Below, piece by piece: positions 1,880-36,511 of a stretch of DNA of 64,000 nucleotides. Below the pieces are notes generated by a model. It ran no database searches. It saw only the letters and a program-made list of their open reading frames with translations, and was not told where the DNA came from. Position 1 is the stretch's first letter; the number at the start of each line of letters is the position of its first letter. This DNA comes from an uncultured Rhodospirillales bacterium (lineage in GTDB: Bacteria; Pseudomonadota; Alphaproteobacteria; Reyranellales; Reyranellaceae): positions 8,990 through 72,989 of the forward strand of contig CAMFJT010000003.1 of NCBI GenBank assembly GCA_945957125.1, given 5' to 3'. Both the position numbers and the translations under genes were made by a program.

Positions 1880-4036
1880 TTAAGCCGCGCGCTTCTGGTT
1901 CTTGCCGCGCAGGATCGACAGGATTTCCGCAGCCGCGGCCGGGATGTTCGTGCCGGGGCCATAGATTGCCGCGACGCCGGCCTTCCTGAGGAAGTCGTAG
2001 TCCTGCGCAGGGATCACGCCGCCGACCACGACCAGCACCTCCGAGCCACCTTGTTTGGCCAGCTCCTCGATGAGCTGCGGCACCAGCGTCTTGTGGCCGG
2101 CTGCCTGGCTCGACACGCCGATCACATGAACGTCGTTCTCGATCGCCGCACGGGCGGCTTCCTGCGGCGTCTGGAACAGCGGGCCGATATCGACGTCGAA
2201 GCCGAGATCGGCGAAGGCCGTGGCGATCACCTTGGCGCCGCGATCGTGCCCGTCCTGGCCCATCTTCACGACCATGAGACGCGGCCGGCGGCCCTCCTCC
2301 TCGGCGAAGGCGGCGATGTCGGTGCGGATGCGCTCGAGGCCGGCATCACCCTCCCATTCGCCGGCATAGACGCCGGAGATCGAGCGGATGGTCGCCTGGT
2401 AGCGGCCATAGACGCCCTCCAGCGCCGACGAGATCTCGCCCACCGTGGCGCGGGCGCGCGTGGCCTCGATCGAGAGGCCGAGAAGATTGCCGGAGCCGTT
2501 GCGCGCGGCCTCGCCCAGCGCCTTCAGCGCGGCGACGCACTTCGCCTCGTCGCGGGTCGCGCGGATCTTGTTGAGGCGGTTCACCTGGGCCTCGCGCACG
2601 ACCACGTTGTCGACGTCGAGAATGTCGATCGGCGGCTCTTCCTTGAGCTGGAACTTGTTCACGCCGACCACGATCTCCTCGCCGCGGTCGATGCGGGCCT
2701 GGCGGCGGGCCGAGGCCTCCTCGATGCGCATCTTGGGCATGCCGGCCTCGACGGCCTTGGTCATGCCGCCCAGCGCCTCGACCTCCTGGATGAGCTTGCG
2801 CGCCTCGGCTACGAGGCTCGCGGTCAGCGATTCGACGTAGTAGCTGCCGGCCAGCGGATCGACGACCTTGGTGACGCCGGTCTCGTGCTGGAGGATCAGC
2901 TGGGTGTTGCGCGCGATGCGGGCCGAGGTCGGCGTGGGCAGGGCGATCGCCTCGTCGAACGAATTGGTGTGCAGCGACTGCGTGCCGCCCAGCACCGCCG
3001 CCATCGCCTCGTAGGCGGTGCGGATCACGTTGTTGTACGGGTCCTTCTCGGTCAGCGACACGCCCGAGGTCTGGCAGTGGGTGCGCAGCGACAGCGAATC
3101 GGCCTTCTTGGGCTCGAACGGCTTGATCAGCTCGGCCCACAGGAAGCGCGCGGCGCGCAGCTTGGCCGCTTCCATGAAGAAGTTCATGCCGATGCAGAAG
3201 AAGAACGACAGGCGCGGCGCGAAGGCGTCGATGTCGAGGCCCTTGGCCTTGGCGGCCCGCACATATTCGAGGCCGTCGGCCAGCGTGAACGCCAGCTCCT
3301 GGACCAGCGTCGAGCCCGCCTCCTGCATGTGATAGCCGGAGATCGAGATCGAGTTGAACTTGGGCATGTAGAGCGCCGTGTGCTCGATGATGTCGGCCAC
3401 GATGCGCATGGAGGGTCCGGGCGGATAGATATAGGTGTTCCGGACCATGAACTCCTTGAGGATGTCGTTCTGGATCGTGCCCGACAGCTTGTCCTGCGGC
3501 ACGCCCTGCTCCTCGGCGGCAACGATGTAGCCCGCGAGCACCGGCAGCACGGCGCCGTTCATGGTCATCGACACGCTCATCTTGTCGAGCGGGATGCCGT
3601 CGAACAGGATCTTCATGTCCTCGACGGAGTCGATCGCCACGCCCGCCTTGCCGACATCGCCCACCACGCGCGGGTGATCGGAATCGTAGCCGCGGTGCGT
3701 GGCGAGATCGAACGCCACCGACAGGCCCATCTGGCCCGCCGCGAGGTTGGCACGGTAGAACTTGTTGCTCTCCTCGGCGGTCGAGAAGCCGGCATACTGG
3801 CGCACCGTCCACGGCCGGCCGGCGTACATCGTCGCCTTCGGCCCGCGCGTGAAAGGCGGGAAGCCGGGCAGCGCGCCCATCGTCTCCAGGTTCTCGAGAT
3901 CGGCCGCCGTATAGAGCGGCTTGACCACGATGCCCTCGGGCGTGGTCCAGTCGAGGGCGGAAAGCGGCTTGTCGCGAAGCTCCTTGGCGGCAAGCTTCTC
4001 CCAGTCGGCGAGGGTCTTCTTCGGGAAATCGGCCAT
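1880..4036 (-). CDS. scpA: Methylmalonyl-CoA mutase, single-chain large subunit with a C-terminal B12-binding domain
   Basis: ORF 1880..4072. Diagnostic stretches include [47 protein letters not shown] and the C-terminal [32 protein letters not shown] (the DxHxxG B12 loop). I chose the start at MADFPKK (4036); 4072 is also possible. Confidence 0.93.
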
Positions 4037-7995: not shown

Positions 7996-8970
7996 ATGAC
8001 GATCTCGCGCCGCGGCGCGCTGGCCGGTCTCGGCGCGCTGTCGCTCGCCGGTGGTGCCGGCGCCCAGCAGCCGTTCCCCAGCAAGCCGCTCACCCTGATC
8101 GTTCCCTTCCCGGCCGGCGGCCCGGCCGACATCTTCGGCCGCCAGCTCGCACAAGGCATGTCGGCCAGCCTCGGCAAGCCGGTCGTGGTCGAGAACAAGA
8201 GCGGCGCGGCCGGCGTCACCGGCATGGACGTGGTCGCGAAGGCCGGCACCGACGCGCATGTAATCGGCATTGCCAGCGCCTCGGCCGGCTCGATCATGCA
8301 GACCCTGATGCCGAAAATGCCCTACGATCCTGACAAGGATCTCGCCCCGATCGTTCTGGCGGTGAAGATCCAGGAGGTGATCGCCGTCAACAGCAAGCTC
8401 GGCGTCACCGACTTCAAGGGCCTGCTCGCGCGCCTCAAGGCCGAGCCCGGCAAATGGGGCTGCAGCTCGGCCGGCACCGGCGGCATCACCCATCTCGCCA
8501 TCGAGCTGTTCAAGCGCGAGACCGGCACCGACATCCTGCACGTGCCCTATCGCGGCGCCGCTCCTGCAACCAACGACCTGCTCGCCGGCGTGGTGCAGAT
8601 GACCATTCTCGACGTGCCGGTGCTGCTGCCGCACATCCGCTCCGGCGCGCTGACCGCGCTCGCCGTCACCTCCGACGTGCGCGCACCGCTGCTGCCCGAC
8701 GTGCCGACCGTCCGGGAGCTCGGCTTCCCGAGGATCAATTCCGACAACTGGTACGGCCTGTTCGCCCCGGGCGCGGCCAGCGCCGCAGACCGCGCGCGTC
8801 TCCACGAAGCTGCCACCGCGGCCCTGAAGTCGAAGGAGCTGATCGACGCCTACACCGCCGTCGGCGGCATCGTGGGCGGCGGCTCGCCCGACGAGCTCGC
8901 CGCGTTCCGCCGCGCCGAGGTCGCCAAGTGGGCCGAGGTGATCCGGTTCGCGAACGTGAAGCTGGAATGA
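7996..8970 (+). CDS. Bug/TctC-family tripartite tricarboxylate transporter substrate-binding protein (orphan)
   Basis: The ATG at 7996 follows a GGAGG at 7986-7990. The product starts MTISRRGALAGLGALSLAGGAGAQQ (Tat/Sec signal) and continues KPLTLIVPFPAGGPADI...GTGGITHLA...HVPYRGAAPA. The upstream part of track ORF 7345..8970 is an out-of-frame shadow of the GST gene. Confidence 0.9.
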   Translation: MTISRRGALAGLGALSLAGGAGAQQPFPSKPLTLIVPFPAGGPADIFGRQLAQGMSASLGKPVVVENKSGAAGVTGMDVVAKAGTDAHVIGIASASAGSIMQTLMPKMPYDPDKDLAPIVLAVKIQEVIAVNSKLGVTDFKGLLARLKAEPGKWGCSSAGTGGITHLAIELFKRETGTDILHVPYRGAAPATNDLLAGVVQMTILDVPVLLPHIRSGALTALAVTSDVRAPLLPDVPTVRELGFPRINSDNWYGLFAPGAASAADRARLHEAATAALKSKELIDAYTAVGGIVGGGSPDELAAFRRAEVAKWAEVIRFANVKLE

Positions 8971-10099: not shown

Positions 10100-11887
10100 C
10101 TATGCGCTCGGCAGCACGCGCACGAAACCGACCGGATGGTCGAAGCCCTTGAGGCCGACGCTCTCCTCGCGCGTCGGCACGGATACGAGCAGCGGCTTCA
10201 CGGCCGGATCTTCCGCGACGGCGCGGCTCAAGACGATGTCGCCGCCGGTGCTTTGGCCCTGCAGCCGTGCCGCCATGTTCACGGTCGAGCCGAAATAGTC
10301 GAGCCGGTCGTTCAGGCTCACCATCACGCTGGCGCCGACATGCACGCCGAGCTTGATGGCGAGCGCGCGATCGGCGGGGTTGGCGCGGTTGAAGCCCGCG
10401 ATGCGGGCCTGCATATCGAGCGCCGCGCGCACGGCATCGGCGGGATCGCCGAACGAGGCCATCACCGCGTCGCCTATGGTCTTGACCACCGCGCCGTTGT
10501 GATCGCGCACGATCGAACCCAGGAAAGCGAAGTGCTCGCGCACGATGTTGAACGCCACCGCGTCGCCGACCCGCTCGTAGAGCGCCGTCGAGCCGCGCAG
10601 GTCGGTGAACAGCAGTGCGATCTGCCCGACCGCCGCGTCGTCGCCGGGTCTTAAGGTCGCCTCGGCGAACAGGTCGCGGAAGACCTGCAGCGAGACCACC
10701 TCGGTCGCCGTCAGCGCGTCGCGGGTCCATGTCCTGTCCTCGACCAGCGCGGCGAGCTCGAAATCGGCGTCGTTGGCGAAGCTGATCCTGCCGGGTTCGC
10801 CGCCCGCCATCGCCTCGACGCCCGTCGCCGTCACGCGCAGGCCGGGGAAGGCGCCACCGTCATGCTCGATGTCGGCAACAGCGCCGGGATGCAACGTGCG
10901 CAATCGGTATCGCCCCGGCGGCAAGGCGAGGTCGATCGTGCGCCTCTCGCCCGGCGCCAGCAGGAGCTGGACCGGCACGTGCGGCGTGGCCATCGGGCCG
11001 CTGAGGCAGAAACCGCCGGCCATCAGCGGGCGGATCGCCGGCGCGGGTGCAAAGGCAAGCTCGACATTGCGCTCGAAGTCGCGCGCGTAGTCGATGTTGC
11101 AGGAAGGACAGTGCGCGCCGCGCGGCAGCTCGGCCAGCGACGCAACGCTGAGCTTGGGGCCGCGGCAGTTGGTGCACAGCAGCTCCCACTTCATCGACAA
11201 CAGGCCCGCGCTCACGGCGGCGAGGCAAGCCTCGATGGCCGGCCGTTCAGCGACGCCGAACACCCGCGCCAGTCGCTTGGGCCTGAGGTGCGCGAGGTCG
11301 CTCGCCATGCCCCCAAGGACGTAGTCGCTGAGCCGCTGGCCGAGGCCGTTGCCATAGGGGCTGCCGTCGATCGCGGCCGCCAACGTTGCCGCCCGCTCGC
11401 GAGCGCCAAGCGGCAGCTGCGGCGCCGGCATGTCGAACAGGGTCGGCCGCTCGCCACCGATGAAGGCCACGGCCTGCAGCACACGCTTCTCGACCGCGGC
11501 GCCCGCCTGCTCAGCGAGCTTCCTGCCGGACAGCCGGCCGAGGAGCGTGAGCGGCTCCCAGTCGAGCGCGTAGCTCACCCTGCTGCCGTTCCCCTCCAGC
11601 TCGATATCGAAGATCGGCCCGAAGCGGCGGAACGGTCCCCTGGTGAAGACGCGTGCCTGGCGGAAATGACGCTCCAGGATCCACTCGTACGGCTTCTCCT
11701 CCCAGGCCAACGTGAAGCCCGCCGCCCTGCCGCTGCCGCGGCGCAGCACGGTGCCGTTGGGCTGCGGCGTCTCCTCCAGCACGTAAGGCGGCAACCCCAT
11801 AGCCTCGTTGAAGCGACTGGTGTCCGCGAGCACCGGCCACAGCCGGTCGGGCGGCAGGTCGAAATGCCAGGTCCAGGTGCGCCGCAT
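10100..11887 (-). CDS. Class III adenylate/guanylate cyclase with an N-terminal SRPBCC-like domain and a CxxC..CxxC zinc-ribbon-like segment
   Basis: ORF 10100..11926. The C-terminus (IALLFTDLRGSTALYERVGD...VVKTIGDAVMASF...GVHVGASVMV...DYFGSTVNMAARL) is a class III cyclase domain. The mid region has CTNCRGP...CPSCNIDY. I placed the start at MRRTWTWHF (11887); 11926 is possible. Confidence 0.85.
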   Translation of the reverse strand: MRRTWTWHFDLPPDRLWPVLADTSRFNEAMGLPPYVLEETPQPNGTVLRRGSGRAAGFTLAWEEKPYEWILERHFRQARVFTRGPFRRFGPIFDIELEGNGSRVSYALDWEPLTLLGRLSGRKLAEQAGAAVEKRVLQAVAFIGGERPTLFDMPAPQLPLGARERAATLAAAIDGSPYGNGLGQRLSDYVLGGMASDLAHLRPKRLARVFGVAERPAIEACLAAVSAGLLSMKWELLCTNCRGPKLSVASLAELPRGAHCPSCNIDYARDFERNVELAFAPAPAIRPLMAGGFCLSGPMATPHVPVQLLLAPGERRTIDLALPPGRYRLRTLHPGAVADIEHDGGAFPGLRVTATGVEAMAGGEPGRISFANDADFELAALVEDRTWTRDALTATEVVSLQVFRDLFAEATLRPGDDAAVGQIALLFTDLRGSTALYERVGDAVAFNIVREHFAFLGSIVRDHNGAVVKTIGDAVMASFGDPADAVRAALDMQARIAGFNRANPADRALAIKLGVHVGASVMVSLNDRLDYFGSTVNMAARLQGQSTGGDIVLSRAVAEDPAVKPLLVSVPTREESVGLKGFDHPVGFVRVLPSA

Positions 11888-12085
11888 GCGAGTAATACTG
11901 TAGCGCCCTCCCGGCGGATGTCGCACAGCTCATCACAGCCCGGTGAGGTATCGTGGGATGGCCGCTGACGCCGCCCCGGGCACGATAACTGCCGCGCGTC
12001 GGTATAGCTTGCCCCTCCTGTGGCTCATGATCGCCGGACCCACCGGACCGGCGCGCTCAGCACCGCCGTGCGAATTGGCGTCAAC

Positions 12086-13408: not shown

Positions 13409-14272
13409 CTATTTCTTCAGCACGTCGGGGACACGATAGAGCGGGAAGCCGTTGAACGGCTTGGATCGCTCGTGGTCCGGCACCTCGTAGAAGTTGGATT
13501 TGGCGTTGTTGTGCAGCCCACCGTCGACCCGCAACTGGATGCCGGTGACGTAGGCGGCCGCTTCGCTCAGCAGATAGACGATGGCGCCGGCGATCTCGGA
13601 CTCCGTGCCGTGGCGCTTGAGCGGCACCTTGCCCTTCACGTTGCGCAGCACGTCGTGCGCCCGTTCGGGATAGCGGTCGAGCCCGGACGAGGCGATGAAG
13701 CCCGGGATCACCGAGTTGACGCGCACGCCGGAATGGGCCCATTCGACCGAGGCCGTATAAGTGAAGTTCGTCTGGCCGGCGCGCGCCGCCCCGCTATGGC
13801 CCATGCCCGGCATGCCGAGCTCGAAATCGGCGCCGACATTCACGATCGCGCCGCCGTTGTCCTCCATGCAGCGGAGGTAGACCTCCTTCGACATCAGGAA
13901 GGTCGCGGTCATGTTGTTGCGGATCACCGCGTTCCAGCCGTTGAGCGAGATGTCCCGGAGCGGTGCCGGGAACTGGCCGCCGGCATTGTTCACCAGCCCG
14001 TCGATCCGGCCGCCCCACCTCATCACACCGTCGACCGCCGCCTTCACCTGGTCTTCCTCGCGCAGGTCGGCGGCGAAGGTGAAGGTGTCGGGATCGCCGA
14101 GTTCCTCCTTCACGCGATCGAGCTTCTCCTGCGTGCGGCCGATCAGCGCCAGCCGCGCACCGAGCGACCGCAGCTCGTGCGCGGTGCAACGGCCGAGTCC
14201 CGAGCCGCCGCCGGTGACGACGATGGTCTGGCCCTCGAACAGGCCGGGCCGGAAGATGGAATGATAATGCAT
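13409..14272 (-). CDS. SDR family oxidoreductase (enoyl/ketoacyl reductase-like)
   Basis: The 287-aa ORF has VVTGGGSGLGR (the TGxxxGxG motif) and NNAGG. The overall length is typical of a classical SDR. Confidence 0.85.
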   Translation of the reverse strand: MHYHSIFRPGLFEGQTIVVTGGGSGLGRCTAHELRSLGARLALIGRTQEKLDRVKEELGDPDTFTFAADLREEDQVKAAVDGVMRWGGRIDGLVNNAGGQFPAPLRDISLNGWNAVIRNNMTATFLMSKEVYLRCMEDNGGAIVNVGADFELGMPGMGHSGAARAGQTNFTYTASVEWAHSGVRVNSVIPGFIASSGLDRYPERAHDVLRNVKGKVPLKRHGTESEIAGAIVYLLSEAAAYVTGIQLRVDGGLHNNAKSNFYEVPDHERSKPFNGFPLYRVPDVLKK

Positions 14273-14320: not shown

Positions 14321-15298
14321 CTACTCGATCTTGATGTTGGCCGCCTTCACGACCTCGGCCCATTTGGCCATCTCCGCGCGCAGGAAGGCGGCCAGCTCCT
14401 GAGGCGTCGAGCCGATCGCATCGGCGCCGAGATCGGCGAACTTCGCCTTGATGTCGTCCGCGCGCATGATCTTCGCCATCTCGGCGTGAAGACGCGCGAT
14501 CACCGCCGGCGGCGTGCCGGCCGGGGCGAGCAGCGCGTTCCATTCGGAGATCTCGCAGTCCTTCACGCCGGCTTCGGCCATGGTCGGTACGTCGGGCGCG
14601 GCCGGCGAGCGCTGGGCGCTGGTGACGGCCAGTGCCCGCACGCGGCCGGCGCGAGCTTGCGGCAGCGCCGCCGACATGTTGCCGAAGTAGAACGGCACGT
14701 GCCCCGCCGCCACGTCGGCTACCGCCGGACCGCCGCCCTTGTAGGGCACATGGCCGATATCGGTGCCGGTGCGCAGCTTGAAAAGCTCGGCAGCGAGATG
14801 CTGGGCACTGCCGTTGCCGGAGGAAGCGTAGAAGAGCTTGCCCGGCTGCGCCTTGGCCATCGCCACCAGCTCCGCGACCGTCTTGGCCGGGTGCGACGGC
14901 GTGATCACCAGCAGCTCGGGCACGGTGACCAGCAGCGATACCGGCGCGAAGTCGTCGGGCGTGCGGAACGGCATCTTCGCGAGCAGCGACGGATTGACCG
15001 CATGGGCGAAGGCGCCGATCAGCAGGGTGTGGCCGTCGGGCGACGCCTTGGCGACCGTCTCGTCGCCGATCACGCCACCCGCGCCTGGCTTGTTGTCGAT
15101 CACGACGGTTTCGCCCAGCGCCTCCTGCAGCCGCGGCGCGATCAGCCGGGCCGTGGTGTCGGCGCCGCCGCCCGGCGAATAGGGCACGACGAGCCGAACC
15201 GGCCGGTTCGGAAAGGACTGCGCACGCACGTGCGGCGCGACGATCGAGAGCGCCGCGCCGAGCATGATGTCGCGGCGCGAGGGGGTGGCGAGCCTCAT
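14321..15298 (-). CDS. Bug/TctC-family substrate-binding protein (last gene of the ATGA-chained operon)
   Basis: The 325-aa ORF has a signal peptide (MRLATPSRRDIMLGAALSIVAPHVRAQ) followed by PNRPVRLVVPYSPGGGADT...SGNGSAQHLA...HVPYKGGGPA. Its start overlaps the upstream stop (ATGA, 15295-15298). Confidence 0.9.
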   Translation of the reverse strand: MRLATPSRRDIMLGAALSIVAPHVRAQSFPNRPVRLVVPYSPGGGADTTARLIAPRLQEALGETVVIDNKPGAGGVIGDETVAKASPDGHTLLIGAFAHAVNPSLLAKMPFRTPDDFAPVSLLVTVPELLVITPSHPAKTVAELVAMAKAQPGKLFYASSGNGSAQHLAAELFKLRTGTDIGHVPYKGGGPAVADVAAGHVPFYFGNMSAALPQARAGRVRALAVTSAQRSPAAPDVPTMAEAGVKDCEISEWNALLAPAGTPPAVIARLHAEMAKIMRADDIKAKFADLGADAIGSTPQELAAFLRAEMAKWAEVVKAANIKIE

Positions 15299-15927
15299 GC
15301 CGCCATCGTTCGCCGGCCGAGCTCGCGCTGCAGCCAGCGCATGAGGGCCAGCCCGAGCTGGAGCGGGACGCCGAACAGCACGATGCCGATGGCGAAGACG
15401 ACCAGGCGTTGGCCGAGCGTGGGCAGCAGCGCCGCTTCGCGCAGGATCATCGAAATGCCCTCGGGAACGCCGATTGCCGCCGCCGCGCCCGACGACATCA
15501 CGATGACGAAGAAGGCGCGGGTGACGTTGGGCAGGAACAGCAGCGCCCCGAGCGGCGAACCGCGGCGCAGCTGACGCAGCGCCTCGACGCCGGCGTCGGC
15601 CACATAGGCCGCCGAATAGGGAACCAGGGAAACCGCGACCGTCATGACGCCGGACATCGCGAGCTTGACGCCGAACAGGCTGAGATCACGCAGGACGTTG
15701 AGCAGGAAGAACATCACCACGAAAGTGGGCGCCGCGCGCATCAGCGCGATGATCGTGGCCGACACGCCGACGCCAACCCCGCCGCCACGATCGCGCAGCA
15801 GCGCGAGCGGCAGGCCGATGGCGAGGCCGAGCGCGAGCGCGATGAACGAGATCTCGAAGTTCGTCACCATGGCCGACAGCAGCGTCGGCACGAAGTCGGT
15901 CCACAGCTCGTGCAGGAACGCGCTCAT
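15295..15927 (-). CDS. Polar amino-acid-type ABC transporter permease (HisM/HisQ-like)
   Basis: The inner ATG at 15927 gives MSAFLHELWTDFVPTLLSAMVTNFEISFIALALGLAIG...MRAAPTFVVMFFLLNVL. The protein has 5-6 hydrophobic spans. An ATGA overlap with the upstream gene lies at 15924-15927. Confidence 0.8.
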   Translation of the reverse strand: MSAFLHELWTDFVPTLLSAMVTNFEISFIALALGLAIGLPLALLRDRGGGVGVGVSATIIALMRAAPTFVVMFFLLNVLRDLSLFGVKLAMSGVMTVAVSLVPYSAAYVADAGVEALRQLRRGSPLGALLFLPNVTRAFFVIVMSSGAAAAIGVPEGISMILREAALLPTLGQRLVVFAIGIVLFGVPLQLGLALMRWLQRELGRRTMAA

Positions 15928-17567
15928 GCCCTCACCTCGCCGCGCTCGAGCCAGGCCCGGAGCTTGTTGCACAGCCAGACCACGACCATCACCACAACGG
16001 TATAGAACACCAGCAGCAGGCAATAGGTCGTCACCCGCCCGCTCGAGAACGAGGTGATGTCGGTCAGCGCGCTCAGCAGTTCGGGCGCGCCGATGAAGCT
16101 GGCGATCGGCGTGCCCTTGGCGGCATTGACCAGGAACGACACGATCGAGGTCGCCGAGCGGGCGAGCGCCTGGACGAACAGCCCCATTCCGGAATGGCGG
16201 CCCTCGTGATGCAGGCTGACGACCGCCTCCGACACCGCCTGGCCGGCATTGCTGCCGTTGCTGAGGCCGAGCGCGAGGATCGCGGCGACCAGCGCCACTG
16301 CCGACGAATAGGGGACGATCGCATTGGCGAAGGCGGCGGCGATCACCAGCGTGAGCACGATCGGCGAGGATTGCAGGGTGACGGTGACAAGCCGCGCCGG
16401 CCAGCGCAGCAGCCGGCTCTCCGAGCCTAGCGCGAAGCCGAAGGCGATCGCGAAGCCGAGCGTCGCGGTGAGCGCTCCGGCGATCAGGATCAGCGAATTG
16501 ACGACGCCGTTCACGAACAGCGACAGGGCCGGCATCGTCTTGAACATCGGCAGGGTGACGTCGAGCCCGAAGATCTTCTCGAACCAGTCCTCCAGCTCGT
16601 TTACCCGACCGACGAACGGCGTCGGCTGAAGCGCGGTGTCGAGGGCCGGCAGGATGCAGTCCTTGTTCGTGCTACCGGTGGCGGTGTTGCATTCGGGGCG
16701 CTGCCAGACTTCCCTCTGCTTCTCGAGGAAGGCGGTGCCGATCCGATTCTTGCGGGCGATGTCGAGGAACACGCCGTCGCGGTGGAAGATCTGGCTCACC
16801 AGGTCGAGCGCGCGAGCGAGCTTGTCGCTGCCGGTGCGCGCCACCCCCATGCCCCACGGCACCTGGGCGAAGCCCATTTTCGGCTCGAACTGGGCGGCGA
16901 ATGCCGGATCGGTGAAATAGAAGGCGAAGAAGCTGTCGTCCTGCGCGGCCAGGGTGCAGGTCTCGTCGCGCAGCCGATCGGGCAGCACGCCGGCCTCGTC
17001 GAACAGCATCAGGCGGGTGTTGCGCGAGACCAGCTCGGCGTTCGAGCCGTTGCCCACGCTGACGCAGATCGTGCTGGCGGCGACGTCCTTCCAGTCGCGC
17101 ACGCGCAGCGCCTTGGGCGCGACCAGCACGGTTTCCGATTGATAGTAGTGCGGCCGGATGAAGCGGACCTGCCCGTCGCGCTGGGTATTGTGGCCCATGG
17201 TCGCGATGGCGAAATCGATCCGGTCCTGGGCCAGCAGGGGGATCCGGCTCGCGGCATTGACGCGTACGAAATCGACCTCGACGCCGAGCTTCGACGCGAT
17301 CGCGCGCGACACGTCGGGCTCGTAACCGAGGTGGGTCGTGCCTTCGCGCGTGCCGAACAGCGGATAATACTCGCGGACGCCGGAACGCAGCCGACCGTTG
17401 CACAGGATGCGCTCCAGCCGATCGGACGGGTGCTCGCAATTGGCTTTCGCCTCTTCCACCAACGCGGCGAGCGCGGCGTCGGGCGTCTCGGCCCTGGCCG
17501 GCGCGGACGCCGCCGCCAGCAGGGTGAGGACACAGGCGAGCAGCCCGCCCGGGAAGCGCCACCTCAT
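15924..17567 (-). CDS. Fusion protein: periplasmic family-3 solute-binding domain joined to an ABC permease domain
   Basis: The ATG at 17567 gives MRWRFPGGLLACVLTLLAAASAPARA (signal peptide). A Cys-rich SBP_bac_3-like part of about 330 aa follows (GVREYYPLFG...IDFAIATMGHNTQRD...). It ends in about 200 aa of TM helices (LSLFVNGVVNSLILIAGALTATLGFAIAFGF...). There are ATGA overlaps at both ends. Confidence 0.75.
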   Translation of the reverse strand: MRWRFPGGLLACVLTLLAAASAPARAETPDAALAALVEEAKANCEHPSDRLERILCNGRLRSGVREYYPLFGTREGTTHLGYEPDVSRAIASKLGVEVDFVRVNAASRIPLLAQDRIDFAIATMGHNTQRDGQVRFIRPHYYQSETVLVAPKALRVRDWKDVAASTICVSVGNGSNAELVSRNTRLMLFDEAGVLPDRLRDETCTLAAQDDSFFAFYFTDPAFAAQFEPKMGFAQVPWGMGVARTGSDKLARALDLVSQIFHRDGVFLDIARKNRIGTAFLEKQREVWQRPECNTATGSTNKDCILPALDTALQPTPFVGRVNELEDWFEKIFGLDVTLPMFKTMPALSLFVNGVVNSLILIAGALTATLGFAIAFGFALGSESRLLRWPARLVTVTLQSSPIVLTLVIAAAFANAIVPYSSAVALVAAILALGLSNGSNAGQAVSEAVVSLHHEGRHSGMGLFVQALARSATSIVSFLVNAAKGTPIASFIGAPELLSALTDITSFSSGRVTTYCLLLVFYTVVVMVVVWLCNKLRAWLERGEVRA

Positions 17568-18262
17568 CTTGCCGCCGCTCCGATCTCGACGATGTGCATC
17601 TCGCCGAATGTATAGGGGCCGTAGCGGTGAAGCGACTGCCCGTCTTCCGCCCGCAGCACTTCCGGAGTCATGCGCGAGAGCTTCTCCTCGGCGAGGTAGA
17701 CCAGCACCGTGAGCAGGATCCGGAACGACAGGCCGTGATCGCAGGCGATGGCGCGCGAACGGTCGAGGCCAACGAAAGCGTTGTGCGTGAGCACCGCCCG
17801 CCCGCCCGGCGCGAGGTGGACGGGCAGACCCTCGAGGAAGGGGTCGAGCAGCCAGCGGCCGTCCGCGCCGCCGGAACTCCAGGTCGGCAGCCGGCCGGCG
17901 ACCGGCACCGGCTCCATCGGAAAGTGCGGCAGGTTGGCGACGATCAGATCGAAACGCCGCCCTGCCACCGGCAGCCACATGTCGCCGCGATGGATCTCGA
18001 CCGGAGCCGCCAGCCCGAGGCCGGCGAGCAGGCGGCGGCTGCCGAGGATCGCGTCGGGCTCGATGTCGACGCCGCAGAGGGCTGCCGCGCCCATCGCGCC
18101 GAGCGCGGCCAGCACGATGCCGCTGCCCGAACCGATTTCGAGCACGCGCGCGCCGCGCACGCGATCGCGATCGGCCTGCAGGGCCTGGATCAGGGCGGCG
18201 GTGTATTCGCTGGGGCGGAGCGCCGGGACGATCGGCGGCGGGGCCAGGCTCGTCCCGGTCAT
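17564..18262 (-). CDS. Class I SAM-dependent methyltransferase, HemK/PrmC-like with NLPH in place of NPPY
   Basis: The ATG at 18262 gives MTGTSLAPPPIV...VLEIGSGSGIVLAALG (SAM motif I) and DLIVANLPHFP (motif IV variant). Only the last 232 aa of track ORF 17564..19795 are in a believable frame. An ATGA overlap with the cyclase stop lies at 18259-18262. Confidence 0.75.
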   Translation of the reverse strand: MTGTSLAPPPIVPALRPSEYTAALIQALQADRDRVRGARVLEIGSGSGIVLAALGAMGAAALCGVDIEPDAILGSRRLLAGLGLAAPVEIHRGDMWLPVAGRRFDLIVANLPHFPMEPVPVAGRLPTWSSGGADGRWLLDPFLEGLPVHLAPGGRAVLTHNAFVGLDRSRAIACDHGLSFRILLTVLVYLAEEKLSRMTPEVLRAEDGQSLHRYGPYTFGEMHIVEIGAAAR

Positions 18263-20340
18263 GGCTCGGCCAGCCGCGTCAGCATCACCGCAGCCACCGG
18301 ATCGTCGGGGAACTCCGACAGCACGGCCTGGTAGCGCTCGAGCGCGAGGTCCTTGTCGCGGCGGAGCATCGCCTCGTGCGCAAGGCGCGTCAGCGCGGCG
18401 AGATGGAGCACCCGCGGGCTCGGCTCCAGCTCCTCGCCGGCACCGTAGGCGCCGAGCAGCTCGTAGATCGGGATCAGGCCGCGGCGCCCTTTGACCGCAA
18501 CTTCGTCGATCGGCCGCACGCAGAGCCGGTCGCCCGCCTCCTTGAAGACGGCATGGCTGATACAGATCCGGGTGCGGAACTCCTTGTTGATGCCCTCCAG
18601 CCGTGCCGCGATGTTCACGCCGTCGCCCATCACGGTGTAGCTCATGCGTTCCAGCGAGCCGATGTTGCCCACCAGCACGGCGTCGGAGTGGATGCCGATG
18701 CGCACCCTGAGCGGCCGCGCTCCTTCCTCCCGCCACGACTCGTTCAGCTCGTCCATACCGCGCTGTATCCGCAGGGCCGCGACGCAGGCGCGCCAGGCAT
18801 GGTCCTCGAGCAGGCCGGGCGCGCCCCAGAAGGCCATCACCCCGTCGCCGATGAACTTGTCGATCGTGCCGTGCTCGCCGTTGACCGACCGCGTGACCAG
18901 CTCGAGGTGGCGCGAGACGCGCAGCAGCAGCGTCTGGGTCGGCAGCTCCTCCGACAGCGTCGAGAAGCCTTCGAGATCGGAGAAGAAGATGGTGAGGAAC
19001 CGGCTGTGGCCGCCGAGCTCCATCTTTCGGTCGGTGGCGATCAGATCCTGGACCAGCCCGACCGGCACGAACGCGGCGAACGACTTCACGGCGGCGTCGA
19101 GCGTGTCGATCGCACGCGACAGCACGGCGATCTCGCGGACCTGGCTGCGCACGACCGGCAGCGGTTCGGGATGCAGCTCCTGGATCCGCGCGACCTTTGC
19201 CGCCAGCCGCTCGAGCGGGGCGGATATCGTGCCGGCCATGACGTAGATGATGACCAGCGCCAGCAGCGTCGCCGCCAGGCCGAGAGCCAGCAGGTACTCG
19301 TTGTTGCGATCGAAGGACCCGGTGAAGTCGGCGATCGGCGTGATGACGAAGAGCTGCCACTTCTTGCCGAAGTCGGGCGGCAGCGTGCTGAGGCTGGCGA
19401 GATATTCGCGGCCGCGATGATGGAAAGCGTAGAGCGTCTGGCCACCGCCGCGCGGATGGGCGCTGTAGGCGATCGCCGGCAGCTCGTTCTCGAGCTGGCT
19501 GATGTGCTGCAGATCGACCCGGCCCCTGTCGCTGGTATAGGTCTTGGACAGATCGGACGCGGCCAGCACGCGGCCCTGCTGGTCGAGGACGTAGGTCAGC
19601 GCATTGGGGCTGACCCGGTGCTCGGAGATGTACTCGCTGAGACCGTCGAGCGTGAGGTCGGCCGCCACGGCGCCCTGCACCTCGCCGTCCTTCGAGAAGG
19701 ATTGCGCGACGGTGAAGCCGATCAGGCCCAGGGCCGCGAAGACGTCCGGATCGGTGATGAACAGGCTGTTCGACTGCACAGTCTCGCGAAACCACATCCG
19801 GCTGCGCGGATCGTAGGCGGTCCCGCCCTCTGCCACGCCCACTCCGCGCCCCTGGGCGTCGAGAAACAGGTAGTGGTCGATCACGCTCTCCCCCGGCTTC
19901 GGCTCGATCCAGCGAAAGGCGAAGGCGGTTTCCGGCGGCGGCAGCTTGCCGAAGATCGGAACCTTGGGATCGATCCGCCGCGCCTGGCGGAAGGAGCCGT
20001 CGTTCAGGCCGGCATAGACGCTGACGATCTTCGGGCTGTGCTGGAGGATGGCGTAGAAATACTTGATCGAGCGATTGTCGCGAAAGAAATCCGGCTGCTC
20101 GTCGCCGACCACCGCGGCGGCGCGGACCAGCGACTTGATCGGGTCGAAGATCTGGCGAATGCTGTCGATCGCCTCGTCGCTGAAGCGCTCGATCAGCTCC
20201 TTGCCCTGGACGCGCGCGGTGCGGTCATTCGAGACGTAGTTCAGCGCGATGAGCGCGCCGAGCACAGGTACCGTCAGCAGCACGAAAAGAGTCAGGATGC
20301 TGGGCTTCAGCCTCAGGCTTGGCCTGAAAATTCTCGTCAT
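18259..20340 (-). CDS. Membrane sensor: Cache-like periplasmic domain, HAMP, class III adenylate/guanylate cyclase, short helical tail
   Basis: The 693-aa ORF has an N-terminal TM (ILTLFVLLTVPVLGALIALNYV) and about 280 aa of extracytoplasmic region. A second TM (LLALGLAATLLALVIIYVMAG) and a HAMP-like linker follow. The cyclase core is LTIFFSDLEGFSTLSE...IDKFIGDGVMAFWGAP...IGIHSDAVLVGNIGS...YTVMGDGVNIAARL. Confidence 0.88.
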   Translation of the reverse strand: MTRIFRPSLRLKPSILTLFVLLTVPVLGALIALNYVSNDRTARVQGKELIERFSDEAIDSIRQIFDPIKSLVRAAAVVGDEQPDFFRDNRSIKYFYAILQHSPKIVSVYAGLNDGSFRQARRIDPKVPIFGKLPPPETAFAFRWIEPKPGESVIDHYLFLDAQGRGVGVAEGGTAYDPRSRMWFRETVQSNSLFITDPDVFAALGLIGFTVAQSFSKDGEVQGAVAADLTLDGLSEYISEHRVSPNALTYVLDQQGRVLAASDLSKTYTSDRGRVDLQHISQLENELPAIAYSAHPRGGGQTLYAFHHRGREYLASLSTLPPDFGKKWQLFVITPIADFTGSFDRNNEYLLALGLAATLLALVIIYVMAGTISAPLERLAAKVARIQELHPEPLPVVRSQVREIAVLSRAIDTLDAAVKSFAAFVPVGLVQDLIATDRKMELGGHSRFLTIFFSDLEGFSTLSEELPTQTLLLRVSRHLELVTRSVNGEHGTIDKFIGDGVMAFWGAPGLLEDHAWRACVAALRIQRGMDELNESWREEGARPLRVRIGIHSDAVLVGNIGSLERMSYTVMGDGVNIAARLEGINKEFRTRICISHAVFKEAGDRLCVRPIDEVAVKGRRGLIPIYELLGAYGAGEELEPSPRVLHLAALTRLAHEAMLRRDKDLALERYQAVLSEFPDDPVAAVMLTRLAEP

Positions 20341-20385: not shown

Positions 20386-21846
20386 TCAAGCGTCCAGTGG
20401 CGGGCGCCGCAGGTGCCAGTCGGTCGCCTGCTGGTAGGCATGGCCGGCGGCGAGGATGGAAGCCTCGTCGAAGGCGCGCGAGACGATCTGGAAGCCCACC
20501 GGCATGCCCTCGCCCGTCATGCCACCGGGCAGCGTCAGCGTCGGATGGCCGCTCATGTCGAACGGCGCGGTGTAGCGCAGACGCCTGGCGACCGTTTCCG
20601 GGTCGCGGCCCGCAGCGGCCAACGCCTCGAGCGACCAGACCGACCGCGGCATGACGGGCACCAGGAGCAGGTCGACCGAGGCGAGCAGCCGGTCGAGCGC
20701 GCCCTTGATCGCGGCGCGCCGCGACTGGAGACGGGCCAGATCGGTGCCGGACAGCCGCCGGCCGGTATCGATCAGCCCGGCGAGAACGCCGCCGTACTCT
20801 GCGGCCCGGGCGGGGTACGTCGCCTCGTGCGCGACGGCGCATTCGACGGCACAGAGCGGTCCCCAGTCGAGCGCGGCCCGATCGAAGCCCGCGGGCAGCG
20901 CCACGTCGAGCATGGTCGCCCCCGCCTTGGCTAGGACCTCGACCGCAGAATCGAGCGCCCGCCGGCCGTCGTCATCGAGGCCGGAAAGATCGGCCGGCCG
21001 CGCGATGCGCTTGCCCCTCACGCCCGCCGCAAGCCCCGCGACACAGTCCGGCACAGGCAGCGAAGCGGCAGTCGGATCGCGATCGTCGGCTCCGGCGATG
21101 GCGCCAAGCACGATGGCGCAGTCGAGCGCGCTGCGCGCCATCGGGCCGATATGGTCGAGCGATTCGGCAAGCGGAAAGACACCGGCACGGCTCACCCTGC
21201 CCCATGTCGGTTTCAGGCCGGTCAGCCCGTTCATCGTGGAGGGAAAGCGGATCGAGCCGCCGGTGTCGGACCCGAGCGAGGCGAAACAGAGGCCGGCCGC
21301 CGTGGCGACACCGGAACCCGAGGAGGACACGCCGGTCCAATACGCCTCGTTCCATGGATTGACCGGCGCGGGAATGGAGGGATGGTGCGCCCCGAACGCG
21401 CCTTCGGTCATCTGCAGCTTGCCGAGGACGACGGCACCGGCCGCCCTGAGTCGGGCCACGACGGTGGCATCCTCGGCCGGCACGTTGCCCCGCCGGATCG
21501 CCATGCCGGCCGCGGTGGTGACACCGGCGGTGTCGCAAAGGTCCTTGACCGCGATCGGCACGCCATGCAGCGGACCGCGCGAACGGCCGGCGGCAGTCTC
21601 GGCATCGCGCGCCGCCGCTTCCGCCAGCGCCGCGTCGCGGGTCACGGTCGCATAGCTTTTCAGCTTGGGATCGAGCCGATCGATACGATCGAGGATGGCA
21701 CCGGTGGTCCCCACCGACGTGAGCGACCGCGCCTTGAGGCGCCGCGCAACCTCGTCGAGCGATAGATAGTGAAGTTCGGCCAACGTGCCCCGCTCCCCCG
21801 AGAGAATGGCTGTCGGCATGTTCGCCGCGATCGGCGCGGCGCTCAA
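20386..21846 (-). CDS. Amidase (amidase-signature family)
   Basis: The 486-aa ORF contains PIAVKDL, GVSSSGSGVATAAG and GSDTGGSIRFPS. These form the Ser-cisSer-Lys amidase signature. Confidence 0.9.
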   Translation of the reverse strand: MSAAPIAANMPTAILSGERGTLAELHYLSLDEVARRLKARSLTSVGTTGAILDRIDRLDPKLKSYATVTRDAALAEAAARDAETAAGRSRGPLHGVPIAVKDLCDTAGVTTAAGMAIRRGNVPAEDATVVARLRAAGAVVLGKLQMTEGAFGAHHPSIPAPVNPWNEAYWTGVSSSGSGVATAAGLCFASLGSDTGGSIRFPSTMNGLTGLKPTWGRVSRAGVFPLAESLDHIGPMARSALDCAIVLGAIAGADDRDPTAASLPVPDCVAGLAAGVRGKRIARPADLSGLDDDGRRALDSAVEVLAKAGATMLDVALPAGFDRAALDWGPLCAVECAVAHEATYPARAAEYGGVLAGLIDTGRRLSGTDLARLQSRRAAIKGALDRLLASVDLLLVPVMPRSVWSLEALAAAGRDPETVARRLRYTAPFDMSGHPTLTLPGGMTGEGMPVGFQIVSRAFDEASILAAGHAYQQATDWHLRRPPLDA

Positions 21847-21917
21847 GGGAGGGAAGGTATAAAAGAGAACGGCGGCGTGAGAGCCACACCGCCGTCGTCA
21901 CCCTGCGGCGGAAGCGT

Positions 21918-34910: not shown

Positions 34911-35333
34911 TCAGACCGTCTTCCACTGCACGAGCGTGTATCCTTCGTGCGGCTCGAACACGGCTTCGACCTCCGCGCCGATCCTCACCTCCTGATGGGG
35001 ATCGCCCAGCAGATTGCCGAGCATGCGGACATTGCCCGCGTCGGGCAGCTCGACCAGCACGACGATGTAGGGGCCGTGCCCCTTCAACGCCGGATGCACC
35101 GGATGCCACGGCCGCTCCCAGCTGTAGATGCGGCCCTTGCCCGACACCTTGTGCCAGTCCAGGTCGAAGCTCAGGCACTTGTGGCAGATCCATTCCGGTC
35201 CCCACAGGAACGTGCCGCACTTGCGGCAGCGCTGGACCATCAGCTCGCCGCGGCGCGTGGCCTCCCAGTACGGCTTGTCGAGCCCATCGTTCTCCGGCAC
35301 CGGGACCGGCAGGCCGTTCGGCAGGTAGCTCAT
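34911..35333 (-). CDS. Zn-ribbon/OB-fold protein (DUF35 family)
   Basis: The inner ATG at 35333 gives MSYLPNGLPVPVPENDGLDKPYWEATRRGELMVQRCRKCGTFLWGPEWICHKCLS...GKGRIYSW. This is the rubredoxin-like CxxC..CxxC motif plus an OB fold. An ATGA overlap with the upstream gene lies at 35330-35333. Confidence 0.88.
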   Translation of the reverse strand: MSYLPNGLPVPVPENDGLDKPYWEATRRGELMVQRCRKCGTFLWGPEWICHKCLSFDLDWHKVSGKGRIYSWERPWHPVHPALKGHGPYIVVLVELPDAGNVRMLGNLLGDPHQEVRIGAEVEAVFEPHEGYTLVQWKTV

Positions 35334-36511
35334 AGCGTGGCCTCCGAGCCCAGGATCATGCTCGACACCGGCGTCACCATCGGTCCGGCGATCACCAGGG
35401 CGACGTTCGCGTCCTTCACCTGCGCCGTCGACTGGCCGCGCAGCTGGCGCACCGCCTCGACCTGCAGCTCGAGCCCGTGCATGTAGCATTCGGCCAGGTT
35501 GCCACCCGAGGTGTTGAGCGGCAGCTTGCCCGACGGCGCCATCAGGTTCTCCGGCGTGAGGAAATCGTTGGCCTCCTCGGCCGTGAAGAAGCCGTGCTCG
35601 ACCAGGCTCATCAGCACACCGCCGGTGAAGTTCTCGTAGGATTGCACGACATCGACATCGGACGGCTTCACGCGGGCCATGTCGTAGAGCTGCGGCGCCA
35701 CGGTCGTGAAGCTCGACGTGGCGTAGAGCGGCGCATTGTGGACGCGCGCGCCGTTGCGATGTTCCGAACCCTGGGTCGCGCCCAGCAGATAGGCCGGCTT
35801 GTGCCGGAAATCCTTCGCCTCCTCCGCGGGCACGAGGATCAACGCCGCCGCGCCGTCATTCTCCTGGCAGCAGTCGAACAGCCGCCACGGCTCGACGATC
35901 CAGCGGGAGTTGTCGTACGCCTCCTCGGTCAGCGGCCGGCCGTACATCACCGCACGCGGGTTGGATTGCGCGTGATGGTAGGAGGCGAGCGCGATGGCGC
36001 GTTGCGCCGACGGCGCGATGCCGTTGTCGTGCAGGAAGCGCATCGCCCGCATGGCGTAGCGCTGGCCCGGCGAGAACACGCCGTAGGGCGCATTGAACGC
36101 GTTCTCGCCCGAGGCTGTCCCGCCGGGCGCCGCCATGCCGAAGCGCTGGAACTGGCCCTGCGCCAGGGCGCGGAACACCACGACGCAGTTGGCGATGCCG
36201 CACGCCACTGCCGCGGCCGCATTGCCGACGGCGGCCGCCGCGCCTCCACCCCCGCCGCCCCAGTTCATGTTGGAGAAGCGCAAGGCCGGCAGGCCGAGCG
36301 CCGCCGCCAGACGCGACGGGTCGTTGCGGTCGTTGGAGTAGGAGGCGAAGCCGTCGATGCGGCGCGGATCGATGCCGGCATCCTCACAAGCCGCGAGCGT
36401 CGCCTGCAGCGCCAGCTTGAACTCCGACACCGGCGACTTGCCGTGCTTGTAATAGGGCGTCTCGCCGACGCCCACGACGGCGACCTGGCCGCGAAGGGTG
36501 CGCTGGCTCAT
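35330..36511 (-). CDS. Thiolase-fold (SCP-x/Ltp-like) protein lacking the usual nucleophilic cysteine
   Basis: The ATG at 36511 gives MSQRTLRGQVAVVGVGETPYYKHG... and NTSGGNLAECYMHG, both thiolase-like. Where thiolases carry C(A/G)SG, about 17 residues before the Gxx(D/N) turn, this protein reads [33 protein letters not shown]. Only the last 393 aa of track ORF 35330..38032 are real. Confidence 0.8.
   Translation of the reverse strand: MSQRTLRGQVAVVGVGETPYYKHGKSPVSEFKLALQATLAACEDAGIDPRRIDGFASYSNDRNDPSRLAAALGLPALRFSNMNWGGGGGGAAAAVGNAAAAVACGIANCVVVFRALAQGQFQRFGMAAPGGTASGENAFNAPYGVFSPGQRYAMRAMRFLHDNGIAPSAQRAIALASYHHAQSNPRAVMYGRPLTEEAYDNSRWIVEPWRLFDCCQENDGAAALILVPAEEAKDFRHKPAYLLGATQGSEHRNGARVHNAPLYATSSFTTVAPQLYDMARVKPSDVDVVQSYENFTGGVLMSLVEHGFFTAEEANDFLTPENLMAPSGKLPLNTSGGNLAECYMHGLELQVEAVRQLRGQSTAQVKDANVALVIAGPMVTPVSSMILGSEATL

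Follow-up and report, generated by a model that had tools for sequence, protein, structure and literature searches.

In type I importers of the ATP-binding cassette (ABC) class, the EAA loop of the transmembrane domains (TMDs) is the established docking site of the nucleotide-binding domains (NBDs). Importers of the polar-amino-acid transport (PAAT) type, such as HisJQMP, Art(QN)2 (PDB 4YMS) and Lactococcus GlnPQ, have a family-3 amino-acid binding domain, and those with a fused substrate-binding protein (SBP) carry it tethered N-terminally to a five-helix TMD, the gene for a second TMD standing next. These features recur in a cluster of five genes on a stretch of contig CAMFJT010000003.1 from an uncultured Rhodospirillales bacterium (64 kb, hereafter the window), which encodes a predicted membrane adenylate cyclase, a methyltransferase (MTase), an SBP_bac_3::TMD fusion, a second membrane domain (TMD2) and a TctC-family binding protein (Table 1). 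Unlike PAAT importers, however, the module has no ATPase gene, its EAA loop is removed in TMD2 (20 residues) and shortened or degenerate in the membrane domain of the fusion (TMD1), neither domain matches BPD_transp_1, an MTase gene stands upstream, and signalling genes adjoin. We tentatively propose that at this locus a disabled ABC importer has been made into a receptor that feeds interchangeable signalling outputs, a reading with nearly as much for it as against it.

UhpC and yeast Ssy1 and Snf3 are transporter homologues that have been reused as sensors. In BceAB-BceS (PMC3023708) and in receptors with the S-component fold (PMC11109136), as would be the case here, a transporter fold is the signalling input and the outputs are interchangeable; the S-component-fold receptors also carry PP2C/SpoIIE and methyl-accepting chemotaxis protein (MCP) domains (PMC11109136). 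The starting folds differ, since BceAB-type transporters are type VII exporters that keep the ATPase and the others are energy-coupling factor S-components or MFS/APC folds, whereas the module consists of type I importer TMDs. A binding module likewise reports to a transmembrane enzyme in the SBP-dependent receptors and sensors (BctC-BctE, LuxP-LuxQ, ChiS-CBP; BvgS; CdgH) treated in a review (PMC8050422), where BctC, a TctC-family protein, is a documented co-sensor. In those systems the SBP touches, or is fused to, the periplasmic domain of the sensor, whereas that of the module is tethered to a TMD heterodimer, and the terms searched in the same review gave no example of an SBP-dependent adenylate cyclase. 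Full-text literature searches turned up no account of a type I importer TMD pair without NBDs, of its MTase partner or of its link to a cyclase or PP2C protein; the original prediction, made from the bare sequence, likewise knew of no described system with this composition. It is plausible rather than probable, in our judgement, that the module is a transporter turned receptor of a known kind, with an NBD-less type I core and an MTase partner as its new elements.

By sequence, SBP_bac_3::TMD and TMD2 descend from a PAAT-type type I ABC importer, the module deriving from the PAAT subfamily with the unfused arrangement SBP-TMD-TMD-ATPase. The fusion comprises a signal peptide, a Cys-rich N-extension, an amino-acid-type SBP (ca. 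residues 60-290), a linker and a five-helix PAAT-type TMD (345-546). In its AlphaFold2 (AF2) model (predicted local distance difference test, pLDDT, 89.6), the binding domain is closed and there are five long membrane helices, with just one short helix (461-470) in the stretch between transmembrane helices TM3 and TM4. The SBP part superposed on proteins of the ArgBP/GlnBP type with a target-normalised TM-score of ca. 0.87. In the alignment of the fusion family R130 was at least 90% conserved and D210 invariant, and the two residues, assigned by eye, are putative ligands of the alpha-carboxylate and the alpha-amino group, respectively. The periplasmic part also holds three conserved Cys pairs, C44/C56, C168/C204 and, in the SBP-TMD linker, C293/C304 (window positions 17436-17438 to 16656-16658). 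The latter two pairs were invariant across 24 diverse fusion members, and C44/C56 was so within the type I clade (defined by its MTase, see below); structural disulfides are thus suggested for N-extension, binding domain and linker alike.

The homology of the two membrane domains, termed permeases in the original prediction, to ATPase-linked TMDs was clear in a multiple alignment with such relatives, although neither domain matched Pfam BPD_transp_1. TIGR01726 scored 33.3 bits for the 210-aa TMD2 and 18.2 bits for TMD1 against a cut-off of 42.2, and a phmmer search of TMD1 against PDB sequences found nothing. TMD2 matched ArtQ (4YMS) with E=0.005; the local HMMER alignment to ArtQ misplaced the EAA region, and the multiple alignment was used instead.

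Close homologues of the fusion protein, with the names Reyranella or Enhydrobacter, run to hundreds. In a scan that covered each species by a single genome and used the profile of alignment A2 (alignment A1, of 24 diverse members, being too divergent), 232 genomes had a relative, and the best 80 of the 232 loci, from Reyranella, Enhydrobacter, Nisaea, Stellaceae and metagenome-assembled genomes (MAGs) labelled Acetobacterales or Burkholderiales, were compared. The cyclase and MTase genes preceded the fusion gene in all 68 of these loci for which 3 kb or more of upstream sequence was available, and TMD2 followed it directly in all 76 with enough downstream flank. Seven loci without the amidase or short-chain dehydrogenase (SDR) genes that flank the window cluster, from Stellaceae, Nisaea and MAGs labelled Burkholderiales or Betaproteobacteria, still held the four genes in order, among flanks that included LivGF ATPases, GntR/LysR regulators and an NtrY-like kinase. 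The conserved unit of the lineage is, thus, four genes, for the dCache/HAMP-like class IIIb cyclase, the HemK2/Mtq2-like MTase, SBP_bac_3::TMD and TMD2. The synteny of five genes across genera that had been expected holds for these four in the testable loci, the TctC gene being facultative and shifting in position.

Beyond the lineage, a profile search retrieved ca. 100 clusters (50% identity) at E<1e-30, including full-length SBP::TMD fusions down to ca. 25% identity, and a metagenome scan seeded with distant members yielded two classes. Class A is fused and has the gene order MTase, SBP::TMD, TMD; class B contains the nearest unfused relatives, in the canonical order SBP, TMD, TMD, ATPase. 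Distant members at 25-45% identity mostly keep the class A order. The most widely conserved core is MTase, SBP::TMD and TMD, with the cyclase as a lineage-specific partner.

The EAA regions of 111 TMD1 and 104 TMD2 sequences were compared as spans between common anchors, because class A is too divergent for global alignment and a hidden Markov model built from canonical TMDs was unsuited to column counts there. The span of the window TMD1 was 47 residues, against 59 in ATPase-linked relatives, and its shortened TM3-TM4 loop (HHEGRHSGMGLFVQALARS) lacks the EAA-x3-G motif; class A TMD1s as a whole measured 41-50 residues between the same anchors, which is 9-18 residues shorter, and had no motif. 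The window TMD2 measured 38 residues, its loop being removed between RQLRRGSPLGALLF and LPN, whereas every canonical class B TMD2, and P0218 (locus L174) as well, measured 58. The median for the 103 other class A TMD2s was also 38, with the cyclase clade (n=84) at a median of 38 (25-38), the other members with a type I MTase (n=5) all at 38 and those with a type II MTase (n=14) at a median of 38 (35-38). Class B TMDs retain the loop as 'EAAEsLGfsr.q....i.LP'. P0218 is the sole fused member with an EAA loop; it keeps a BPD_transp_1 match and has no MTase gene upstream.

No open reading frame (ORF) with the series Walker A...LSGGQ...DE was found in the 64-kb window. An ABC ATPase motif occurred in none of 24 distant class A loci and, within ±10 kb, in 6 of 85 close loci, never adjacent to the module, whereas 29 of 39 canonical unfused relatives had the motif directly after the TMDs. 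The nearest ATPase genes, upstream of the module in L031, form a LivG/LivF-type pair, which was rejected as a partner because it belongs to another transporter class. The lack of a cognate ATPase noticed in the window extends to all 109 related loci, beside none of which an ATPase gene was adjacent, and is a genuine conserved feature and not a gap of the window; the family has neither an ATPase gene nor an EAA coupling loop in either TMD. A dedicated ATPase as universal partner of the permeases, named beforehand as grounds for giving up the idea, was not seen within ±10 kb, and in this lineage the permeases were accompanied by the cyclase and MTase genes.

These data bear on the simplest alternative, a conventional PAAT importer that borrows a remote ATPase and has the cyclase, MTase and TctC genes as unrelated passengers. 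The SBP and TMD folds are importer-like, ATPase sharing is known in some sugar importers, and the inspection reached ±10 kb from each locus. Against this, both EAA loops are deleted or degenerate throughout the family and intact in the ATPase-bearing relatives, an ATPase is absent beside more than 100 loci compared with its presence in 29 of the 39 canonical ones, the cyclase and MTase stay with the TMD pair across different flanks, and one member has its membrane domain fused to PP2C (see below). Since the EAA loops and the ATPase gene are both lost, we consider an importer with a borrowed ATPase highly improbable, and the earlier suggestion of an ATPase-sharing transporter under cyclic nucleotide (cNMP) control is disfavoured because both TMDs lack the docking loops.

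In a neighbour-joining tree of the TMDs, class A did not form one clade, and its type II members stood nearer to canonical class B than to the type I members. This tree is to be distrusted because its branches are long and it is rooted on paralogues. The same 20-residue deletion in nearly all class A TMD2 sequences argues for a single origin of class A, and the conflict with the tree stands: it reflects either long-branch attraction or two convergent losses of the ATPase and the coupling loop.

The cyclase comprises a transmembrane helix, a periplasmic dCache_1 domain (ca. 138-332), a second transmembrane helix, a HAMP-like linker (ca. 367-411), a class IIIb catalytic domain (449-621) and a helical C-terminal tail of ca. 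60 aa. Of the predicted Cache-HAMP-cyclase architecture, the first and last elements were recovered in Pfam (dCache_1, E=1.1e-14; Guanylate_cyc, E=9.8e-16), while the HAMP match stayed below threshold (16.9 bits, with the cut-off at 25). The six residues of the class III catalytic site are all present, namely the two metal-binding Asp residues (D455 and D499), the substrate-binding Lys and Thr (K495 and T569) and the transition-state Asn and Arg (N576 and R580). The best solved relative was P. aeruginosa CyaB (3R5G, E=1.1e-30), with which the catalytic motifs aligned. Since the catalytic residues are intact and align with those of CyaB, cyclic AMP (cAMP) is the predicted output. Unlike CyaB, the window cyclase has a dCache domain and a HAMP-like linker as its input and is constantly linked to the MTase and TMD module. 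The window holds a second class III cyclase gene (10100-11926, minus strand) 2.4 kb downstream of the cluster, with DUF5939 and Guanylate_cyc matches and a catalytic domain only ca. 30% identical to that of the operon cyclase.

Elsewhere in class A the module stands beside other outputs. In L093, L096 and L102, a membrane HAMP-SpoIIE/PP2C protein of ca. 650 aa is encoded directly after it; these partners share the HAMP and PP2C layout of SiaA but score below its threshold (53.7 against 700 bits). P0208 (L169, 2307-5333) is a single chain of 1008 aa that contains SBP_bac_3, a class A membrane domain, GAF and PP2C; a type II MTase gene overlaps its start, and a gene for a cNMP-binding protein lies divergently upstream. 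The module is, in all, joined to three outputs: a class III cyclase, a HAMP-PP2C protein and a fused GAF-PP2C unit. In other lineages the outputs are PP2C proteins, or there is none. Related sensor domains in the cyclase and in the HAMP-PP2C partners were considered and found without support.

For the TMD pair, a role as a receptor is likelier than one as a pump, and the preference for signalling over plain uptake expressed in the original prediction fits the data better. The receptor reading draws on the four-gene synteny, the loss of the ATPase and the EAA loops, the links to cyclase and PP2C proteins, the intact cyclase and the retained SBP fold and ligand residues. An amino-acid-like ligand would close the tethered binding domain, which would dock on the TMD heterodimer; without ATP-driven transport, the conformational change of the TMDs would be read by a partner instead. 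In the window this partner would be the cyclase, touched through its transmembrane or periplasmic dCache part, so that the ligand would alter cAMP synthesis. The MTase is expected to bind S-adenosylmethionine (SAM) and most likely acts at the cytoplasmic face of the complex; N-methylation there of a protein amide or amine, belonging to the module or to the transducer, may set or tune the signalling.

Several observations weigh against a receptor. The TMD pair and the cyclase are joined by gene linkage alone, and no homology was detectable between the sensor domains of the cyclase and the HAMP-PP2C proteins (BLASTP E>0.2; hhalign probability 3%). No transducer gene lies near the module in L172, L175/L176 and L099-L103, and since some modules lack such a neighbour, the module must have a function of its own. 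Two loci, L171 and L091, have no adjacent MTase gene. The absence of an ATPase applies to ±10 kb of each locus only, and the good conservation of the transmembrane helices is equally expected of a working channel.

Free-standing SBP_bac_3 genes often lie near the module (L093 10227-11270, L096 12041-13075, L099 7855-9138, L100 583-1893, L103 7640-9097, L172 7538-8332 and L174 4108-5004), several of them coding for unusually long proteins (344-485 aa), and the tethered domain may not be the sole ligand input. Two further settings are not obviously explained by signalling or transport. In L172 (11410-19011) the order is SBP, MTase and module, followed by a polyketide synthase/non-ribosomal peptide synthetase (PKS/NRPS) megasynthase of 2533 aa, and in L087 (3521-6834) the module lies directly upstream of a VgrG/spike-tip pair of a type VI secretion system, with no transducer nearby.

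The slot directly upstream of the fusion gene (METHYLTRANSFERASE) is filled by either of two unrelated class I MTase families. Type I occurs in the window and its cyclase clade and in L172 and L175/L176. The closest models to the window enzyme are those of HemK2/MTQ2 (archaeal/eukaryotic type), none of which reached its cut-off (PRK14968.1-1, 69.1 against 242 bits; TIGR00537, 61.1 against 87); the score for TIGR03534 fell short as well (42.9 against 199). Its AF2 model (pLDDT 85.4) matched N6AMT1/KMT9/HemK2-TRMT112 best in Foldseek (target-normalised TM-score ca. 0.8, 23% identity). The likeness to HemK2/Mtq2/N6AMT1-Trm112 includes motif I, and a W-xGG-xGR segment after motif IV is presumably shared with human HemK2/N6AMT1. 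The enzyme predicted to be HemK-like has the class I SAM fold, as expected, but stands nearer to HemK2/Mtq2 than to bacterial HemK/PrmC. Its motif IV is indeed NLPH, as first read, and the (N/D)PPY of the HemK family is not present; VANLPHFPM was unchanged in 30 type I homologues, with the SAM-binding motifs intact. Further differences from HemK2/Mtq2, beside NLPH in place of NPPY, are an extra C-terminal beta-hairpin, the membrane-module setting and the lack of a Trm112-like gene in the operon, and in other lineages an unrelated Methyltransf_23-type enzyme takes the MTase slot.

This type II enzyme (L087-L103 and L169; ca. 270 aa, with an N-terminal 'YY.SG.YD.RYP') matched weakly to amine or alpha-N-methylating enzymes such as the daptide MTase and EgtD. 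A test for homology between the two types gave BLASTP E=0.45, their common ground being only the SAM-binding motif I region. One intermediate lineage (P0145, L170) may have its MTase gene downstream: a 190-aa ORF (2585-3157) that matches Methyltransf_25 weakly (E=0.006) follows the TMD pair instead of preceding it, the region before the pair being cut off by the contig start. An adaptation system of the CheR/CheB kind is a poor parallel: the Pfam matches of neither MTase type include the CheR family, and the window operon has no CheB or MCP domain. A convergent MCP gene was seen in L091 only. The conserved sequence 'NAGQ' at the cytoplasmic end of TM3 was considered as a GGQ-like MTase substrate and dropped, the Gln not being kept below ca. 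45% identity. Because all curated family cut-offs and the NPPY motif are missed, the window MTase was not filed as a release-factor methyltransferase. In public records it bears the label 'release factor glutamine methyltransferase', and the fusion is called 'polar amino acid transport system substrate-binding protein'; neither name is likely to be right.

The near-constant MTase raises two other explanations of the module. In one, uptake is independent of ATP: the TMD pair gates a ligand delivered by the SBP, and the MTase N-methylates and traps it, as group translocation or SAM-driven facilitated diffusion, the cyclase and PP2C genes being merely co-regulated sensors of the same compound. 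The position of the MTase immediately upstream in most lineages, from two unrelated families, fits a chemical step better than a specific contact. The weak resemblance of type II to amine or alpha-N-methylating enzymes and of type I to amide/amine N-MTases points the same way, as do the occurrence of some modules alone or beside PKS/NRPS genes and the conservation of the transmembrane helices and putative SBP ligand contacts. However, we know of no ABC-type TMD that works without an NBD, HemK2/Mtq2-type enzymes act on protein Gln or Lys and not on free amino acids, L171 and L091 lack the adjacent MTase, and the in-chain GAF-PP2C fusion and the repeated HAMP-transducer neighbours are left unexplained. 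We regard such uptake as unlikely.

In the other explanation, the MTase occupies the place of the NBDs on the TMD dimer, and a ligand outside switches methylation of a protein (cyclase, PP2C or other). It agrees with the loss of the NBD docking loops, with the tight packing or overlap of the MTase and fusion genes in every MTase-bearing class A locus, with the SAM motifs and invariant NLPH, which argue for an active enzyme, and with the normal need of HemK2/Mtq2-type enzymes for a Trm112 partner that the operon does not encode. The support is positional only, however, with no MTase-TMD fusion among ca. 150 representatives inspected; moreover, the MTase gene stands upstream rather than where the lost ATPase gene would be, two unrelated families would need the same docking surface, and no demethylase is present for reversibility. 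Such a ligand-gated MTase appears quite unlikely. The broader notion that a SAM-dependent MTase has functionally replaced the ATP-binding cassette, either by coupling the ligand to protein methylation or by SAM-driven ligand capture, with two MTase families recruited, is doubtful.

The TctC protein is an accessory, lineage-variable passenger of the operon. In the informative related loci its orthologue followed TMD2 in 9, lay between the amidase and cyclase genes in 4 and was absent from 42, and because it changes place or is missing in this way, the unit of the lineage is counted as four genes. As an add-on to the proposed receptor, it may supply the sensor with a second ligand or simply belong with the neighbouring catabolic genes. 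Its own neighbours are TMD2 and the SDR gene. Two further orphan TctC/Bug paralogues in the window (7999-8967 and 56294-57262, both on the plus strand) are ca. 41% identical to it and adjoin catabolic genes (esterase, luciferase-like monooxygenase). The absence of TctA and TctB noticed originally applies to all three TctC genes, the neighbouring ORFs tested including neither. Orphan TctC genes are usual in genomes with expanded Bug/TctC families (PMC5812351, PMC5994714), and the operon protein is, like most of those, a full-length member without TctA/TctB; unlike in tripartite tricarboxylate transporters, it is chained by an overlap to a membrane pair of another type, an arrangement that is not conserved.

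The ORF check of the window confirmed five consecutive minus-strand ORFs (20340-14321), with the same ends as in the original prediction and an ATGA stop/start overlap at each of the four junctions. The obligatory co-translation read from these overlaps went too far. Twelve NTGA stop/start overlaps between well-supported ORFs occur within the window, whose base composition is 68% GC (65-72%); since they are common there, the ATGA chain marks an ordinary tight operon and no more, is not statistically remarkable and is of a kind ordinary in the source genome. A second run of three ATGA overlaps (35330-35333, 36508-36511 and 37704-37707, minus strand) belongs to an unrelated operon with thiolase-like and Amidohydro_2 genes. 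Nor are the overlaps strictly kept in relatives, where the cyclase-MTase and MTase-fusion junctions range from -59 to +40 nt (the larger overlaps hinging on start-codon calls); the fusion/TMD2 junction alone is nearly constant, the two genes overlapping by 1-8 nt in almost every relative examined.

The amidase gene lies 45 bp upstream of the cyclase gene and is missing from the seven related loci that retain the four-gene core, which places it outside the conserved module as a flank, possibly co-transcribed with the cluster. The SDR gene, 48 bp downstream of the TctC gene, is missing from related loci with different flanks and is likewise no part of the module. Given the strong terminator-like hairpin immediately upstream of the amidase gene and the lack of any terminator-like site found between the TctC and SDR genes, the transcription unit may span amidase through SDR. 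A comparison with Rfam found no RNA elements, no sigma-70-like promoter was found, and a repeat search gave nothing meaningful.

Table 1. Features of the five-gene cluster and its flanks (window positions)
Feature	Positions	Strand	Basis
Amidase gene, flank	20386..21846	-	Pfam Amidase E=1.7e-101
Terminator-like hairpin, 13-bp stem, upstream of amidase gene	21868-21896	-	
Membrane sensor adenylate cyclase (predicted), 693 aa	18259..20340	-	dCache_1 and Guanylate_cyc Pfam matches
ATGA overlap, cyclase/MTase	18259..18262	-	sequence read
Cytoplasmic SAM-dependent MTase, 232 aa, HemK2/Mtq2-like (type I)	17564..18262	-	class I MTase models
MTase motif I, LEIGSGSG	18119-18142	-	
MTase motif IV, NLPH, residues 110-113	17924-17935	-	
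MTase W-SGG-DGR segment	17855-17881	-	
ATGA overlap, MTase/SBP::TMD fusion	17564..17567	-	sequence read
SBP_bac_3::TMD fusion, 547 aa	15924..17567	-	SBP_bac_3 E=2e-19
Shortened TM3-TM4 cytoplasmic loop of TMD1, at canonical EAA loop site	16155..16211	-	anchor spans
ATGA overlap, SBP::TMD fusion/TMD2	15924..15927	-	sequence read
TMD2, 210 aa, divergent PAAT-type permease homologue	15295..15927	-	no Pfam family
20-residue deletion removing the EAA coupling loop of TMD2	15526..15576	-	anchor spans
ATGA overlap, TMD2/TctC	15295..15298	-	sequence read
TctC/Bug-family periplasmic binding protein, 325 aa, Tat-like signal	14321..15298	-	PF03401 TctC 258.4 bits
SDR gene, flank	13409..14272	-	Pfam adh_short

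ABC importers are defined by their ATPase, and this family shows that the membrane core can serve another purpose. Its members number in the hundreds, among Alphaproteobacteria of soil and freshwater and outside them, and the question can be tested directly in the cultured carriers Enhydrobacter aerosaccus ATCC 27094, Reyranella soli NBRC 108950 and Nisaea nitritireducens DSM 19540. If the module is a receptor, it would be a new type of input for cAMP and for PP2C/partner-switch signalling, and the first type I importer turned sensor that we could find. That an MTase is a near-constant partner, and comes from either of two unrelated families, may hint that a ligand outside the cell is coupled to methyl transfer inside it in a way not yet described.

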